A stretch of 64,000 bases of DNA from assembly GCA_963665115.1 (NCBI GenBank), contig OY762007.1:5312001-5376000 (forward strand), given 5' to 3'. Source of the stretch: an uncultured Rivularia sp. GTDB lineage: Bacteria > Cyanobacteriota > Cyanobacteriia > Cyanobacteriales > Nostocaceae. The translations under genes and the position numbers were made by a program. This document shows, piece by piece, positions 51,756 through 64,000 of the stretch (its first letter is position 1; each line of letters starts with the position of its first letter). A model generated the notes under the pieces. It did not search any database and was not told where the DNA came from. It saw only the letters and a list, made by a program, of their open reading frames with translations.

Positions 51756-53593
51756 AATTGCCTCTTACAAGCTATAAAGGAATACTGATAAATTACAAAT
51801 TGGCAAATAAATCGTATATTTGGCAGCAGTTGATACAGCGCTTTAATTATTTGGGAATAATCTAATTAATAACTGCAATCTGCTGTATTTGTAATTTCAT
51901 CTATAAGCATGATGTCATTTATTAATTTTCAGTACCAGGGAAGTTCGGGAAGTTAAGGAAATAAGTTATTTATATTCAATAAAAATCTCATCTCATCCCA
52001 TCCTCTTTCCTTTTTAAGGAGAGGGAAAGGGGGTGAGGTTAAAATCCATAACTTCTATATTAAATATAATTATGACGGGACAAAAAAGAGGTAGAGGAGT
52101 TGTTTTAACAAGTGAAGGATGGGATAAACTACAAAAAGCTTTACAAGAATGGGAAAATAAAACTAATTCTGATAAACCATTAACTATTGAGGCTTTAATT
52201 GAAATTACTCAATTAGATCCAGCTACAATTTCTAAAGTTTTACGTCGAGAGGTTGGAGTTGATAGACGTACTTTAGAAAGATTTTATCGTAGTTTTAATT
52301 TGGAGTTGGATAAACATGATTATACAAAGTTGAATTTAAGAAATAAACATAAAAAACATAAGCATTTTTGCAGTGAAGCACCGGATGTTTCTATTTTTTA
52401 CGGACGTACTGAAGAATTAAATATATTACAAAAGTGGATTATAACTGATTGCTGTCGTTTAATTACATTAGTAGGAATTGGTGGTATAGGGAAAACAAGT
52501 TTATCTGCTAAATTAATTCAAAATTTCAGAGATAATTTTGATTTTACAATTTGGTTTTCTTTGCGAAATGCTCCACCACCTTTAGAAATCATTACTAATT
52601 TATTACAAGTTTTATCGAATGGGGAAGAAATTGATTTAACTAAAAATATTACTTTGTTAATCAATAAATTACTTAGTTCTCTACAAAATCAACGCTGCTT
52701 ATTAGTTTTCGATAATGTTGATGCTGTTTTTTGTGATAGTAAAATTGCAGGGAATTATCTAGAAGGGTATGAGGGTTATAGTGAGCTTTTTCAAAAATTA
52801 GGTGAAACACAACATCAAAGTTGCCTGTTAATTACTTCTAGAGAAAAGCCAAAAGAAATTGCTGCTATTGAAGGGAAGGAATTACCCGTTCGTTATTTAC
52901 AAATGAATGGTTTGGGAATTCCGGAAGTTAAGGAAATTTTTAAAGCAAAAGGAATTAATAATACTATAGATTCAGATTGGGAACAGTTAACTATTAATTA
53001 TGCTGGAAATCCTCTATATCTGAAATTTATCGCTACTACAGTAATAGAATTATTTGATGGGAATATTTCTGATTTTATCGCTCAAGGAAGTACGGTATTC
53101 GGTGATGTTCGCAATCTGATAGCACAGCAATTTAATCGTTCATCGGAATTAGAAAAATCGTTATTATATCGGTTAGCGATTCATCAAGGTGCTGTCGTTC
53201 TAAAAGAACTGGACGATTTTAATCAAAATCAGTCATTTCACTTATTAGAAATACTAGAATCATTAAATCGTCGTTCGCTGATTGAGAAAAATAATTCTAA
53301 ATTCTCGCTTCAACCAGTAGTCATGGAATATGTGACTATAAATTTCATCGACAAAATATATCAAGAAATTATTTCTGGGGATATTTCATTATTCAAGAGT
53401 CATGCTTTACTAAAAGCTACTTCACCGGATTATATTCAAGATATACAAAAACGTTTAATTATTAAACCAATTATTGAACGTTTAGAAATGTTTTTCGGAA
53501 ATAACAATCAAATTGAAACTCATTTAATTAATATTTTAGATGATTTTCGAGGTAGAACGCAGTATTTTACAGGTTATGTTATTGGAAATATAA

Positions 53594-55184
53594 GGTTCTT
53601 CAACACTTAGTATGCTAAAAATACATTAAAAAAAGTGAAAGTAAAGATTAAATAGCGCAAATTGACTCGTTAGAGCGGCGAATTGAACTACCGCTCCGCT
53701 TGATTCAATTGCGTTGAGACGGGCTTAAAATCAACTCGTAAAAACCCTAAATACTCATAGCCCGCCTCAACGCCGCTACGCTAATCGAATCATAGTTCAA
53801 TTCTTAAATATAAATAAGTATATCAAATAATTACTAAAAATAAAAAAACAACTGGCTTCGTGTTACTAGTTATAAAATAGATTTATAAAACCTGGTATAT
53901 CTTACTATAATGACTTCAAAAAAAGATATTAAAATATTAACACAACTACTGGATTTGTCAGGAATAAAAGTTATCTCACATCATCAATACAAAGGTGTTG
54001 GAATAATATTACAAATCGAATCAATTAATAATGAGAGTATCTGTCCCCGTTGTGGAAAAAAAAGTCATCATTTACATCAAAATCATAAATCTATAATTAA
54101 AGATTTACCTCTAGGAGAGCAACAAGTTTTTCTAGAAATAAATAAACGACAGTTTAAATGTCAAAAATGCCAAAAACCTTTTACAGAAGACTTATATTTT
54201 GTAGAAACAAGAAGAAAATATACCAAAAGGCTTAGCAATAAAGTAATAAAAGAAGTATTAGATTCAGATATTAATAGTGTTGCAGAAAAGGGTATTGTTA
54301 CTACTAGAGAAATAGAAAGAATGCTCAAAGATGCTTCAAATAATGCAATAATTAGAAAGCCTTCATATTTAAAAAGACTTGGTATTGATGAAATAGCTTT
54401 AGTTAAAGGTAAAGGAAATTACTGTGCTGTATTGGTAGATTTAGATAAGTCTGAATTAATTACAATTTTACCCCGAAGTTCACAAGAAATAATCAGAAAA
54501 GTACTTAATTCATGGGGAAAAGAAATTTTAGACCAAGTAGAGGAAGTAAGTATAGACTTATGGCGAGGTTATAAAAATATAGTTCATGAACTAATGCCAA
54601 ATGCACAAGTTGTTGCAGATAGATTTCATGTAATGACACAAATAAATCAAGAATTAGATAAGACTAGAAAATTAGAAAAACGAAAATTAGAAGATTTAAT
54701 CAAAAAATCTAAATCTAAATCTGATAAAGATGAATATGAAAAAATTCTAAATGGATTGAAAAAAAGTAAATATGCTTTACTAAAGAATGAATTAAATCTA
54801 AATGAAGAACAGAAGACAAAACTTGCTGAAGTTAAACAAGTATCTTCAAACCTAAAAATAATGCATGAACGGTCATGAGAACATCAGAATTATTTTTAAC
54901 GATACATATGATTGGTTAGCAGGACTCTTTAAACTTGGTATGTGGCTAGATCAAGCGAAAACATACTTTCCAGTTAGTCAGAAAACTATTATTCGGTGGA
55001 TTGATGAAATTATCGCCTACTTTGATAATGGTACAACTAGTGGTGTAGTTGAGGGCATTAATAATAAATTGAAACTTATTAAACGCTCGGGTTATGGATT
55101 TAGAAACTTTGATAATTTCAGAACTAGATGTTTACTTAATTGGCATTTAAAATGTTAGTTAAGCATACTAAGTGTTGAAGAACC
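53594..55184 (+). mobile_element. ISL3-family insertion sequence (1591 bp)
   Basis: 23-bp perfect TIRs GGTTCTTCAACACTTAGTATGCT; 8-bp TSD AAATATAA at 53586-93 and 55185-92. Confidence 0.95.
53910..55158 (+). pseudogene. ISL3 transposase, frameshifted at about 54870
   Basis: CPRC/CQKC zinc finger, GIDE, VSID, DRFH, EGINNK..KR..YGFRN split over two frames. Confidence 0.88.
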
Positions 55185-57229
55185 AAATATAATCAATTTA
55201 CTATCTTATTTATTTTCAGAACTTCGCAATCAAGATTTTTCTAATTTAAATATTAAACAAGCTAATTTACAGGGAATCAATTTAAGTAATATTGATTTTA
55301 GTAACAGTAATTTTATCAAACCAACTTTTACTAATAGCTTTGGAATTATTTTTAGTCTTGCTTTTAATAATGATGGAGAATATTTAGTTACAGGAAGTAT
55401 TGATGGTGAGGTTTGTTTATGGAAATGGCAAGAAAATCAATTAATATTTCAACATCAAGCACATAAAACTATAGTTGAGTCGGTTGCTTTTAGTCCCGAT
55501 TCTCAAAAAATAGCTAGTTCGAGTCGAGATAGAACGGTGAAATTATGGGATGCTGCTACTGGACAATGTATTTTAACGTTAAATTCACCAAATCAAAGTA
55601 TAGTTAAAAGTCTTATTTTTAATCAGCATGGAAATAAGTTATTTGGTTACTCGAACAAACAAATATTAATTTGGGATTTAGAGACGGGTACTTTTCATAT
55701 ATTAGTCGAATCTCAAAGTCCTATTTGTTCTCTAATTTCAACGATAGCTGATATTTTAATCTTTGGTTGTGAAGATGGTATGGTTTATATCTGGGATTTA
55801 AATACAGAAGCATTTATAAATCAATTTTCAACTAGTAGCGGCGTTGTTTTATCGGTTAGAGTTACTGATGATAATCAAATTTTAGCTTGCGGTATTAAAG
55901 ATAAGATTGTCAAAATTTGTAATTTAAATAATTCTGAATCTATACAAATACAATCTCAAAGTTATAATATCTCCTTGATTGATATTAATCGTAACGGACA
56001 ATATATAGCGACTGGTAGCGGAGAAAAAATTATTAAAGTATGGGATATTGATGCGGGTTTATATTTACAAAGTTTGTCGGGACATCTTTCAGAAATTAAC
56101 GCTATAACTTTCAGCAATACAAATAAAATATTAGCAACTGCTAGTGTCGATCGAACGGTAAAAATTTGGGATATCGCTACGGGAAAATGTCTGAAAACTT
56201 TACAAGGACGTGCAGACTTTGTTCATTCTGTGATATTTAGTAGCGATAATCGGACAATTATTAACGGTAGTCAGCATTCAATTAAATTTTGGGATGTAGA
56301 ATCTGGGCAATGTATATCTACTTTATTCAAAAGCAAAGATTGGTTTTCTTCAGTAATTATTAGTCCCGATGAAAAAACAATTGCTTGTGCAAATATTGGT
56401 AATGAAAATAATATTATCCGAATTTGGCAAGTAGAATCTTTAAATCAAAGCCATCAAATACCGAATAGAATCCTTACAGGACATGATGATAACATTTGGG
56501 CGATCGCCTTTAATTCTGATAGTACAAAAATAGTTAGCGGTAGTAGCGATAGAACAGTAAAAATCTGGAATTCTCAAACAGGACAATGTTTAAAAACCTT
56601 TTACGGCCATAATCGTCCGGTGCTTTCAGTTGCTTTTAGTCCGAATGGAAATACAATTGCTAGTTGTGGTGGTCATTCGATTATTAAACTTTGGAATATT
56701 GAAACTGGAGAATGCGATCGAACAATTCAAGAAAAAGCTTCTTATACTATTAAACTTAATTCCAACGGTTTAATTTTAGCTAGCGGACATACTAGCGGTA
56801 TTGTTAAACTTTGGGATACAAATAATGGTCAATGCATACAGACTTTAGGAAAACTTGGTAAACCAATTGTTTCTATAGCTTTTAGTCACGATGGTGAATT
56901 TATCGCTTATGGAAGTTACGACGGTACTGTAACTGTATGGGATATCAACAATAATAAATCTATTGCCATATTACAGGAAAATTTTTCTTCACCTTGGAGT
57001 CTCGCTTTTAGTAACTTTAGCCAATATTCAAATTTATTAGCTGTAGGTAGAGATAGCGAAGTTGTTCAAATTTGGGATATTAAAACGAGTAAGTTAGTTG
57101 CATTTATGAGAGGCGATCGCCATGCCGAAAAAGTTAATATCACAGGAGTTACGGGTTTGAACGCTTCAACTATTGCTTCTTTAAAAGAATTGGGAGCTTA
57201 TAGTTAACTGGTTTTTTCCAAACGTTAAG

Positions 57230-60163: not shown

Positions 60164-60736
60164 ATGCAATCAGCAATTAATCTTTTCACGGTTGAGGAAT
60201 ACCTAGAATTAGAGAAAACCAGCGAAGTTCGTCACGAATACCTCGGTGGACAAATTTTTGCTATGTCTGGGGGTAGTAAAGAACATAATACTATTAGTTT
60301 AAATATTGCTAGCAGACTACGTTCTGATTTGAGAGGTGGTTCCTGTAGCGTATTCATGGCTGATATGAAAGTGAATATACGAGTAATCAATCAAAATAAA
60401 AATATATATTACTATCCCGATGTTGTTGTTAGCTGCGATTCTGATGATAAAGACCGTTATTCTTTAAATTATCCTTGTTTAATTATTGAAGTACTTTCAC
60501 CAAGTACAGAAATCACAGATAAACGAGAAAAATTTGTGAATTATCGTGATTTAGAAAGCTTGCAAGAATATGTTTTAATTTCTCAGAATGAAATCAAGAT
60601 AGAAGTTTATCGTCAAGATAATCAAGGGAATTGGTTAATGCAAACTTTGGGTAAAGATAATGAATTACATTTAAATTCGATTAACTTAACTCCAACAATG
60701 GCAGATATTTACGAAGATGTAATCAAAATAATATAG
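60164..60736 (+). CDS. Uma2 family endonuclease
   Basis: HEYLGG, YYPDVVV, EVLSPST and LQEYVLISQ motifs. Confidence 0.9.
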   Translation: MQSAINLFTVEEYLELEKTSEVRHEYLGGQIFAMSGGSKEHNTISLNIASRLRSDLRGGSCSVFMADMKVNIRVINQNKNIYYYPDVVVSCDSDDKDRYSLNYPCLIIEVLSPSTEITDKREKFVNYRDLESLQEYVLISQNEIKIEVYRQDNQGNWLMQTLGKDNELHLNSINLTPTMADIYEDVIKII

Positions 60737-60747
60737 GATAAATTATT

Positions 60748-61326
60748 ATGACTGCTTTAACTTTACAAATACCTCCTTCACTCAAATTTACAGATGAAGA
60801 ATTTGAGCAGATTGTCGAATTTAATCAAGAATTGCGTTTGGAATTAACTGCTGAAGGAAAATTAATTATTATGTCACCAACTGGGGGAGAAACGGGAAAC
60901 CGTAATTTTGAAATTTATATTGATTTAGGTATTTGGAACCGTAAATACCGTCTCGGAAAAGCTTTTGATTCTTCTACAGGTTTTAAACTTCCAAATGGTG
61001 CTACTCGTTCCCCCGATGCTTCTTGGATAAAAATGGAAAGATGGGAGGAACTCACACCACAACAAAGAAAGAAATATTTACCTTTGTGTCCCGATTTTGC
61101 TGTGGAATTAGTATCTGAAAGCGATGATGTGGAAGATACTAGAAAGAAGATGCAAGAGTATATTGAAAATGGTTTGAGGTTGGGTTGGTTAATTAATCCC
61201 AAAGATAAGCAGGTTGAAATTTATCGTGCTGGTAAGGAAGTTGAAATTTTAGATTCTCCAACAAGTTTATCTGGGGAAGATGTGCTGGAAGGGTTTAGTT
61301 TGGATTTACAAACAATTTTTGGATAA
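60748..61326 (+). CDS. Uma2 family endonuclease
   Basis: RSPDASW, CPDFAVEL.S and RLGWLINP motifs. Confidence 0.9.
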   Translation: MTALTLQIPPSLKFTDEEFEQIVEFNQELRLELTAEGKLIIMSPTGGETGNRNFEIYIDLGIWNRKYRLGKAFDSSTGFKLPNGATRSPDASWIKMERWEELTPQQRKKYLPLCPDFAVELVSESDDVEDTRKKMQEYIENGLRLGWLINPKDKQVEIYRAGKEVEILDSPTSLSGEDVLEGFSLDLQTIFG

Positions 61327-61340
61327 TTTCAATATTAATT

Positions 61341-61919
61341 ATGACTGCTTTAACTTTACAAATACCTCCTTCTCTCAAGTTTACAGACGAGGAATTTGAA
61401 CAAATAGTTGCTTTTAATCAAGAATTGCGTTTGGAATTAACTGCTGAAGGGGAATTAATTATTATGTCACCAACTGGAGGAGAAACGGGAAATCGTAATT
61501 TTGATTTAATTGGTCAAATATGGTTTTGGAGTCGTAAAAACAATTTAGGAAAAGCTTTCGATTCTTCTACGGGTTTTAAACTTCCAAATGGTGCTACTCG
61601 TTCCCCGGATGCTTCTTGGATAAAAATCGAAAGATGGGATGCTCTAACACCACAACAAAGAAAGAAATATTTACCTGTGTGTCCCGATTTTGCTGTGGAA
61701 TTAGTATCTGAAAGCGATGATGTGGAAGATACTAGAAAGAAGATGCGAGAGTATATTGAAAATGGTTTGAGATTGGGTTGGTTGATTAATCCTAAAGATA
61801 AGCAGGTGGAAATTTATCGTAGTGGTAAGGAAGTGGAAATTTTAGAATCTCCTACAAGTTTATCTGGGGAAGATGTGCTGGAAGATTTTAGTTTGGATTT
61901 AGAAATTATTTTTGGGTGA
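61341..61919 (+). CDS. Uma2 family endonuclease (tandem paralog)
   Basis: Near-identical to 60748-61326 except for one internal patch. Confidence 0.9.
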   Translation: MTALTLQIPPSLKFTDEEFEQIVAFNQELRLELTAEGELIIMSPTGGETGNRNFDLIGQIWFWSRKNNLGKAFDSSTGFKLPNGATRSPDASWIKIERWDALTPQQRKKYLPVCPDFAVELVSESDDVEDTRKKMREYIENGLRLGWLINPKDKQVEIYRSGKEVEILESPTSLSGEDVLEDFSLDLEIIFG

Positions 61920-61933
61920 ATTAAAAATTCATT

Positions 61934-62047
61934 ATGACAGCCTTAACATTACAAATACCTCCCTCACTTAAATTTACAGATGAAGAATTTGAGCAGATTG
62001 TCGAATTTAATCAAGAATTGCGTTATCTAATTGTAAAAAAACACTAA
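61934..62047 (+). pseudogene. 5' fragment of another Uma2 tandem copy
   Basis: First 30 codons MTALTLQIPPSLKFTDEEFEQIVEFNQELR, then unrelated sequence and stop. Confidence 0.85.
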
Positions 62048-62114
62048 AAAATTCGGAAAATTTTGTAATATGTTTGTAAACTTCAGTATTACTAATTAAG
62101 ATAGGTACAAACTC

Positions 62115-62573
62115 ATGGTAGAACCTTTAACGGCAGCAGTGATTGTCTCCTTATTTTTCTCTGAAGCAATTAAAGAAGGTGGAAAAACTTTAGGAAAAGG
62201 GATTGCAGATACATTTAGCAAACTGGTAAACACGATTCGAGAGAAGTTAAAGGCCGAAGGAACAGAAGGGTTATTGACACGAGCAGAAAAAGACCCCACG
62301 GAAGCTAATAAGGCAAAATTACAAGATGAATTACAAACACAAATAGATGGGGATGGTGCATTTGCTAATCAACTCAAACAGCTAGTAGAACAACTACAAG
62401 CACAGGATGAGAAAATACGTCAGGTAGTTCTAAGTGAAATTGAATTAACTGGAGATTTAAAGGCTCAAGATATTACTCAGAAAGCCGCTAAAGATGGTGC
62501 TGTTGAGCAGGAAATGATTAAAGGGGTGAAAGCTACAAACATTGATGTTGGTAATTTAAATCAAGAAGCTTAA
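62115..62573 (+). CDS. Small helical protein (HeLo/Bell-like N-terminus) with two C-terminal pseudo-repeats
   Basis: Hydrophobic N-terminal helix MVEPLTAAVIVSLFF, helical core, repeats at aa 103-123 and 132-151. Confidence 0.7.
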   Translation: MVEPLTAAVIVSLFFSEAIKEGGKTLGKGIADTFSKLVNTIREKLKAEGTEGLLTRAEKDPTEANKAKLQDELQTQIDGDGAFANQLKQLVEQLQAQDEKIRQVVLSEIELTGDLKAQDITQKAAKDGAVEQEMIKGVKATNIDVGNLNQEA

Positions 62574-62577
62574 ACCA

Positions 62578-64000
62578 ATGAATCCCAATTCAGAAAATCG
62601 CAATACGCAAAAAGCGGTTGAGAATCTAAGAGCCAGTGGTAATATCACAATTGGAAATATTACCCAAAATATAAACAATTCGAGTAATCTTCCTAAACCA
62701 ATAGGTTCCCACCAAAACCTTCCCCGCAGTGGTGTAATTAAATTTGTCGGAAGAGAAGAAGTTTTAGAAACCTTACATCAGCAGTTACAAGAAAACGAAC
62801 GGGTAGCGATTTCGGCAATTACTGGTATGGGTGGTATCGGTAAAACAGAATTAGCGCTGCAATATGGCGATCGCCATTGCAAACAAGGTACATATTCTGG
62901 TGGGGTTTGTTGGTTTCGAGTACGCAATGAAGATGTCGGAATTCAAATTATTAATTTTGCCAGAGAAATCGGTTTACAACCACCAGATGATTTTGATTTA
63001 CTAAACAAGGTTAAATATTGTTGGCGAAATTGGCAAGCTGGTGATGTATTGGTAGTATTTGACGATGTGAGGGAATACGAGCAGATAAAAGACTATTTAC
63101 CTCCCAAAGAAGCACGATTTAAACTTTTAGTAACTACCAGACAGCAGTGGTTAGGACAATCATTTAAGAAAGTGATTTTAAAAGTATTAGATGAAAAATA
63201 TGCTTTAGAATTGCTTATGTCTTTTGTTGGGGAATCAAGAATTTATCAAGAAAAGGAAGAAGCGAAAAAACTTTGTGCTGATTTGGGATATTTACCTTTA
63301 GGTTTGGAATTAGTAGCAAGGTATTTACAGCGTAAACCAAATTTATCCCTGGTGGAAATGCGTCAAAGATTGGCTTTAGAACATCGTTCGCTCCAAGAAA
63401 CATCAGGGGACATGACAGCACAATTGGGAGTTAAGGCTGCTTTTGAATTAAGTTGGCGAGAATTAAATCAACATGGACAAGGATTAGGTTGTTGGTTAAG
63501 TGTTTTTGCTTTAGCTCCGATTCCTTGGGAATTAGTTGAGCGTTGTTTACCGCAAGAAGACAAGGAATATTTAGAAGATGTTAGAGATGATTTTTTAGTA
63601 AATTTCAGTTTACTGGAGGATAAAGGGGAAAATACTTATCAACTGCATCAGTTAATTCGAGAGTTTTTGATAGGTAAGCGCGAAGAGTTACCTTATGCTG
63701 AAAATATTAAACTTCGGTTTTGTGAGTTAATCGCTAAAATTGGACGGAAAATTTCTCCGATTCCTACTCAATTAGAAATTATAGAACTTACTCCAATAAT
63801 TCCTCATATTGTAGAAACTGCAACTAATTTAAAAAATTATTTAACTGATGAATATTTCATTTCTCCCTTTGCTGGCTTGAGTCGATTTTATCAAGGACAA
63901 GCAACTTATGAGCAAGCGTTACCTTGGTGCGAGCAATGTTTAGCGACTTGTAGAGAACGTTTTGGAGAAGAACATCTTTACGTTGCGACTAGTTCAAATA
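62578..64000 (+). CDS. NB-ARC-TPR NLR-like STAND protein (runs off the window; absent from the ORF track)
   Basis: Open frame from ATG 62578: FVGRE, GMGGIGKT, LVVFDDV, LVTTR, GYLPLGL, LHQLIR, then TPR start GEEHLYVATS. Confidence 0.9.
   Translation, partial: MNPNSENRNTQKAVENLRASGNITIGNITQNINNSSNLPKPIGSHQNLPRSGVIKFVGREEVLETLHQQLQENERVAISAITGMGGIGKTELALQYGDRHCKQGTYSGGVCWFRVRNEDVGIQIINFAREIGLQPPDDFDLLNKVKYCWRNWQAGDVLVVFDDVREYEQIKDYLPPKEARFKLLVTTRQQWLGQSFKKVILKVLDEKYALELLMSFVGESRIYQEKEEAKKLCADLGYLPLGLELVARYLQRKPNLSLVEMRQRLALEHRSLQETSGDMTAQLGVKAAFELSWRELNQHGQGLGCWLSVFALAPIPWELVERCLPQEDKEYLEDVRDDFLVNFSLLEDKGENTYQLHQLIREFLIGKREELPYAENIKLRFCELIAKIGRKISPIPTQLEIIELTPIIPHIVETATNLKNYLTDEYFISPFAGLSRFYQGQATYEQALPWCEQCLATCRERFGEEHLYVATSSN

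Follow-up and report, generated by a model that had tools for sequence, protein, structure and literature searches.

At the right-hand end of the window, by which we mean the whole 64,000-nt stretch of Rivularia DNA analyzed here, two collinear genes follow one another (Table 1). The first encodes a protein of 152 aa with two C-terminal pseudo-repeats (R1 and R2), and the second, whose ORF starts 4 nt after the effector stop codon, encodes an NB-ARC-TPR receptor. This is the layout that the initial annotation had read from the DNA, and the repeats were recovered with the sequences and at the positions it had quoted. The receptor matches the Pfam NB-ARC family at aa 60–263 (E = 4.9e-18), and its TPRs begin at aa 434. 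As had been claimed, it carries no N-terminal effector domain: its first 51 aa match no Pfam family, and its leader of about 55 aa holds a single segment (R0) resembling the effector repeats. The effector gave no match over the cut-off in Pfam, NCBIfam, or PADLOC, libraries that hold no Bell profile.

Table 1. Coordinates of the features at and around the effector/receptor locus, in window positions.
Feature	Position	Strand	Remarks
Three genes of the Uma2 family (PF05685) beside the locus	60164..61919	+	Two match DNA upstream of the CHAT-fused L049
Fourth Uma2 copy, start only (truncated)	61934..62024	+	92% over 76 nt to Uma2 start; likely left cassette junction
Nostoc-like cassette spanning the Bell-BASS4 gene, its upstream region, and the R0 leader	62028..62700	+	From best matches of 60-nt windows
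Effector gene	62115..62573	+	Bell-type, 152 aa; 85% identical to L003, tail = BASS4 entry A0A367RNA1
Hydrophobic N-terminal helix (effector aa 5–19), after invariant Glu3	62127..62171	+	Predicted membrane-targeting element
BASS4 repeat R1 (effector aa 103–123)	62421..62483	+	20/21 identical to L003; profile E = 8e-11
BASS4 repeat R2 (effector aa 132–151)	62508..62567	+	18/20 identical to L003; profile E = 2e-10
NB-ARC-TPR receptor gene	62578..64000	+	Continues beyond the window edge
BASS4 repeat R0 (receptor aa 11–31)	62608..62670	+	13/21 identical to L013, whose leader reads as NLR-side entry BAZ20405.1
NB-ARC domain (receptor aa 60–263)	62755..63366	+	P-loop 62824–62847; sister to a CHAT-fused NB-ARC, apart from those that usually accompany BASS4
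First TPR repeat	63877..64000	+	Further TPRs past the window

A structure model of the effector informed by 63 sequences (pLDDT 73) has a helical fold from aa 7 to 108, with helices at aa 7–20, 28–48, 51–59, 63–79, and 81–97, and falls below 50 in the tail. Glu3 is invariant in the 63 sequences, and aa 5–19 form the most hydrophobic stretch (Kyte-Doolittle 2.0). Bell/MEPIS domains have been described as helical bundles of ~100 aa with a hydrophobic first helix and an acidic residue at position 2–3, a description that the effector fits with its predicted helices, Glu3, and hydrophobic aa 5–19, and a protein 85% identical to it sits in the published Bell-side set. Fold searches with the model returned background-level matches only. 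Of five models of the tail alone, the best (pLDDT 69, pTM 0.36) showed two similar β turns, the likeness of the tail fold to HET-s (2RNM) was not significant, and neither protein had a Pfam match to the HET-s motif (PF11558). The structure prediction suggested as a check thus gave the helical N-domain and, in its best model, the two-β-turn tail, but the other four tail models reached only pLDDT 46–52, which counts against that fold.

Comparison with published classes identified the motif. In the supplement of PMC8086366, whose README equates class C06 with BASS4, two windows of entry A0A367RNA1 coincide in sequence with the tail of the effector homologue at L003, and the NLR-side entry BAZ20405.1 coincides with the leader at L013. 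The tail of the window effector is identical to the two L003 windows at 33/38 and 28/33 positions. BASS4 is recorded in cyanobacteria and actinobacteria, with 2+1 layouts described (10.1101/2020.01.06.895854), and its Bell-side copies are comparatively often repeated, as in HET-s (PMC8086366). The published criteria for BASS pairs ask for an NLR leader of 10–150 aa and for a gene with NB-ARC or NACHT no more than 5 kb away, in most cases collinear and nearby; the window pair has an NB-ARC domain over the cut-off, a 4-nt gap, and the motif within its ~55-aa leader. Judged by sequence, the pair almost certainly belongs to the published Bell-BASS4 + NLR class. The motif and the 2+1 layout are already known, and the pair is an ordinary BASS4 member. 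The earlier interpretation as a Bell-type effector joined to an NLR by a 2+1 amyloid motif is supported, but its novelty is not, as the motif matches BASS4.

Of 270 candidates from a protein search, 218 were homologues. From 34 genome loci we retained 25 with a full-length effector; the nine omitted rows were truncated, extended, or spurious. A P-loop gene lies within 900 nt in 22 of these 25 homologues, which are kin and not independent, and 10 have the same 4-nt gap; three have no P-loop gene within that distance, which counts against pairing. A profile of R1 and R2 from 32 other effectors matched 22 of the 25 receptors adjoining homologues at E ≤ 0.01, the co-occurrence in adjacent genes that the initial annotation had proposed as a check. 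Only 5 of 26 same-genus genomes contain effector homologues, at 34–51% identity, and Nostoc proteins reach 85%.

At four loci (L039:1957-3448, L048:1943-3434, L029:5636-6343, and L041:1977-3440), the genes that come after Bell-BASS4 homologues have R0-like leaders but do not encode NLRs. The products of these genes are pairs of 168–171 aa and about 330 aa, a 235-aa protein without a Pfam match, and a TPR protein, and they are possibly new BASS4 sensor types. At L047:1498-3498 the effector homologue and the gene with the R0-like leader are divergent, not collinear. The Rivularia genome also carries a third Bell-like/NB-ARC-TPR pair, of the two-gene type (G000:C1:3137916-3137494 and 3137346-3135283, minus strand), with a motif that, by reading, resembles class C12 (BASS7) in effector and receptor alike; at least three Bell/NLR channels with different motifs are present in this genome.

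The resemblance of R0 to R1 and R2, as read from the aligned residues, is modest by pairwise alignment and clear by profiles. R0 and R2 align with a score of 34 (7/20 identical, 35%), reached by 16 of 5000 shuffles; R0 and R1 score 26 (5/20 identical; 15 of 5000), and R1 and R2 score 19 (1166 of 5000). Across the genome, 34 of 7750 ORF N-termini score at least 34 against the effector tail. The same score of 34 between effector tail and NLR leader misses the pairwise local score of at least 40 over at least 15 aa used in a published complementary screen, which is not the class definition. Pairs shown to cross-seed are 43–56% identical, a range below which R0 falls with both R1 and R2, and this counts against seeding. 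With the effector-side profile, the N terminus of the window receptor ranked first of 7750 (E = 0.059), and thus the matching segment claimed for it is above chance, but by profiles only. The NLR-side profile, built from other leaders, again placed R0 first of 7750 (E = 1.2e-10); it ranked the effector tail only fourth of 7750 (E = 0.73), which counts against amyloid pairing.

The NB-ARC region of the receptor is 45–53% identical to those beside BASS4 effectors and 86% identical to that of L049, a 1086-aa CHAT-NB-ARC-TPR protein with a Trypco2 gene upstream and the same Uma2 genes (84–90.5% at the nucleotide level). In a quick tree of 56 NB-ARC regions (57 were found and one duplicate was dropped), the window receptor is sister to L049 (SH-aLRT 100) and lies outside the main BASS4 clade; forcing it into that clade, a group drawn after seeing the tree, was rejected (AU p = 0.0002). 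When the locus was cut into 60-nt windows, the best matches were to L005 and L007 (Nostoc) up to about 62700 and to L049 after that point, and the Nostoc-like DNA begins at 62028, directly after the truncated Uma2 start. We read the locus as a mosaic, in which a Nostoc-like Bell+R0 cassette of ~670 bp sits on an NB-ARC-TPR body of other ancestry. Recombination near 62700 likely put the cassette in place of a Trypco2 gene and a fused CHAT domain, a direction (cassette in, CHAT out) that we infer because the fourth Uma2 copy is truncated.

At L049:869-4524 the same Uma2-flanked site is occupied by Trypco2 and the all-in-one CHAT-NB-ARC-TPR gene in place of Bell-BASS4 and R0. At L076:906-1602 (minus-strand reading), a Bell-BASS4 + R0 pair is joined to an NB-ARC with L066 as its sister, and L066 belongs to the putative readthrough type described below; this is apparently a second module swap. 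Elsewhere in the window (52033–57207), a transposase insertion (53910–55158), itself in two frames, seems to interrupt an NB-ARC-like gene that ends in a long WD40 tail; the transposase and N-terminal-half labels were assigned by reading.

As assembled, the receptor ends at 597 aa, beyond the window edge, and a 97-aa TPR ORF then continues in another frame. One base at L001:6353 is absent, at full depth, from the contigs of runs X1 and X2, two of three runs from the same organism; in run X3 the listed pieces end on either side of this position and give no call. These runs are possibly the source of the assembly itself and are suitable for the frameshift question. Because the extra base is missing from the X1 and X2 contigs, the frameshift is likely an assembly error and the gene intact; by arithmetic, the receptor without this single base has 695 aa. 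Both paralogous receptors (G000:C1 near 3091000 and 3135200) also switch frame within their TPR arrays, perhaps through assembly errors too.

By analogy with better-studied classes, we think it quite likely that the receptor switches on a membrane-damaging partner via the shared amyloid motif. The receptor TPRs would sense a ligand, upon which the NB-ARC domain would oligomerize, and the clustered R0 leaders would template a β-solenoid amyloid onto the R1–R2 tail of the effector. The hydrophobic helix 1, once freed, would disrupt the membrane, and the cell would die, likely as an anti-phage defense. Amyloid formation, seeding, toxicity, and a phage trigger are attributed to this pair from what is reported for BASS1, BASS3, and BASS11/Bab: NLR-side BASS1 and BASS3 motifs seed Bell-side motifs as prions and form fibrils, and Bab/Agp kills phage-infected E. 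coli via BASS11 and helix 1 (10.1101/2024.11.07.622273). In the accessible parts of the BASS literature we found no experiment on BASS4, which appears there only as an AlphaFold model.

We weighed four other readings of the pair. The mosaic structure might reflect a recent graft, uncoupled or weak, whose R0 belongs to BASS4 but has drifted and seeds the effector poorly. The low identity of R0 to R2 (7/20) and R1 (5/20), the missing Ile-Phe of the consensus in R0, and the origin of the receptor body in another clade would all fit. Yet both genes are open, with the TPR frameshift absent from two of three same-organism runs and no call from the third, R0 reaches E = 1.2e-10 on the NLR-side profile, and a biofilm-metagenome contig (depth 4.6) crosses this junction as well (43 differences over 653 nt), and we consider such a graft unlikely. 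It is somewhat less probable still that the repeats form a finite β-solenoid or β-complementation complex, with one receptor rung and two effector rungs, and no self-propagating amyloid. BASS4 is, by reading, richer in charged residues than BASS1 and BASS3, the modeled tail closes into a two-turn unit, and the accessible BASS literature offered no BASS4 experiment, whereas every tested BASS class reported there gave prions or fibrils and the layout copies HET-s/NWD2. We give an equally low chance to correct amyloid signaling whose output is developmental or stress-linked death of filament cells and not phage defense: the literature we could consult does not settle what Bell/NLR pairs do, no PADLOC model matches the effector, and no ligand is known, but the patchy distribution (5/26 same-genus genomes) and the effector swapping fit conflict systems, and the sole tested Bell system in that literature is anti-phage. 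That the motif belongs to no classified amyloid family, as the initial annotation had thought possible, would suit an effector with no Pfam, NCBIfam, or PADLOC family over the cut-off but is refuted by near-identical entries in the published BASS4 set (R1 20/21, R2 18/20, R0 13/21) and is highly improbable.

Outside the window, the NB-ARC comparison led to a different arrangement. An in-frame Met ahead of the domain is missing from 18 of its 57 rows, and in 18/18 of these a Bell-like ORF ends at TGA with the receptor frame directly after it. The Rivularia genome has one copy of this layout, in a second pair at C1:3088808 (within G000:C1:3088391-3092255, L279), confirmed without difference by contigs of all three runs. 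Loci with TGA-CT and a conserved two-stem hairpin comprise L279; L059, L061, and L066-L088 in part; L090-L173; and L260-L320. A 31-nt post-stop pattern gave 84 matches and the same number with TGA added, which places TGA in 84/84. With up to three mismatches, the pattern occurs in 24 of 401 genomes of the cyanobacterial phylum, against 0 for a reversed control; TGA was present in 28 of 30 fetched loci (from 32 matches), the two exceptions being three-mismatch matches without gene context, and in 31/31 metagenome matches, some of which are the same MAGs. As a genome baseline, TGA ends 1261 of 5293 long ORFs, 23 of which then continue with CT. Among the 84 matches, 76 have an in-frame P-loop and 70 an upstream ORF of 100–190 aa. 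The upstream genes encode Bell-like proteins with BASS5-, 7-, 9-like, or other motifs (by a rough sorting against the published classes) and also α/β-hydrolases (3 of 6 scanned), most without an evident amyloid motif; downstream lie NB-ARC or NACHT domains (6 scanned).

The element of 40 nt has no Rfam match and folds into two stems, with the stop codon within the lower one. Over 74 distinct copies, which are kin and not independent and were gathered with a pattern that was built from these same loci and fixes most columns, pair 12:27 is C-G in 67, T-A in 5, T-G in 1, and C-A in 1; pair 14:25 is C-G in 40, T-G in 21, T-A in 10, G-C in 1, and C-A in 2; and pair 1:34 is G-T in 46, G-C in 26, and other in 2. 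Pair 12:27 in metagenomes is C-G in 21, T-A in 9, and T-G in 1. Such an element resembles the readthrough signals of eukaryotic viruses, in which UGA-CUA is combined with a stem-loop. On balance, the conserved TGA and hairpin probably represent programmed stop-codon readthrough, judging by this conservation. Two alternatives are re-initiation at a non-AUG or downstream GTG or TTG codon, and an RNA hairpin with another job; no ATG precedes the NB-ARC start in 66/68 loci, and ATG, GTG, and TTG are all absent in only 15/68. Selenocysteine recoding gained no support, with no SelA in the one genome searched (99.9% complete, controls matched) and no tRNA-Sec over the cut-off there. ARAGORN reports a 74-nt tRNA with a CTA anticodon, labeled Pyl, at G000:C1:203200-203273 (minus strand), possibly an amber suppressor or else a pseudo-tRNA.

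Under readthrough, one mRNA would yield many short Bell-motif killers and few long Bell-motif-receptor chains; a single encoded amyloid motif would serve both sides and set their ratio. An in-frame effector/receptor wiring across a stop codon was not found in the literature searched, in which subscription journals are thinly covered, and this wiring is apparently undescribed. We lean toward a cyanobacterial NB-ARC/NACHT chassis with three exchangeable wirings, namely fused (CHAT, EAD1), a two-gene amyloid motif, and readthrough through UGA-CUR and the 40-nt hairpin. If true, the UGA-hairpin would serve bacterial immune genes as a portable signal for recoding, would account for Bell-motif genes whose neighboring receptor seems to have no matching motif, and would mean that receptors behind it are probably annotated with wrong starts. 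The window pair is useful mainly since BASS4 is the HET-s-like doubled class for which we found no experiment in the BASS literature accessible to us, and it offers a clean natural swap, an amyloid-coupled killer on a receptor that is elsewhere fused to a caspase-like domain.

Among known systems, the published Bell-BASS4/NB-ARC-TPR pairs (10.1101/2020.01.06.895854; PMC8086366, C06) are closest, with the same motif on both sides, two effector repeats, collinear adjacent genes less than 10 bp apart, and a short receptor leader. The window pair differs from the usual members in its NB-ARC-TPR body, which lies outside their clade (45–53% identity, against 86% to the CHAT-fused receptor), and from the tested pairs in an R0 more diverged from R1 and R2. 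HET-S/NWD2 of Podospora (HRAM) has the same 2+1 layout of ~21-aa pseudo-repeats and likewise a helical N-domain with a hydrophobic first helix, but has HeLo in the place of Bell; the receptor of the window pair is an NB-ARC-TPR protein. Bab/Agp of E. coli (BASS11; 10.1101/2024.11.07.622273) resembles the window pair in its Bell-type executioner, MEPIS-like N terminus, and motif common with the adjacent sensor; it differs in its other motif, its single repeat, and its TPR-GreA/B-PIN sensor, which is not an NLR, and it is phage-tested. The all-in-one CHAT-NB-ARC-TPR proteins (L049, L050, and L052) share the NB-ARC-TPR body, and L049 shares the upstream Uma2 genes as well, but their effector is fused in one chain with no amyloid motif, and in L049 a Trypco2 gene lies upstream.
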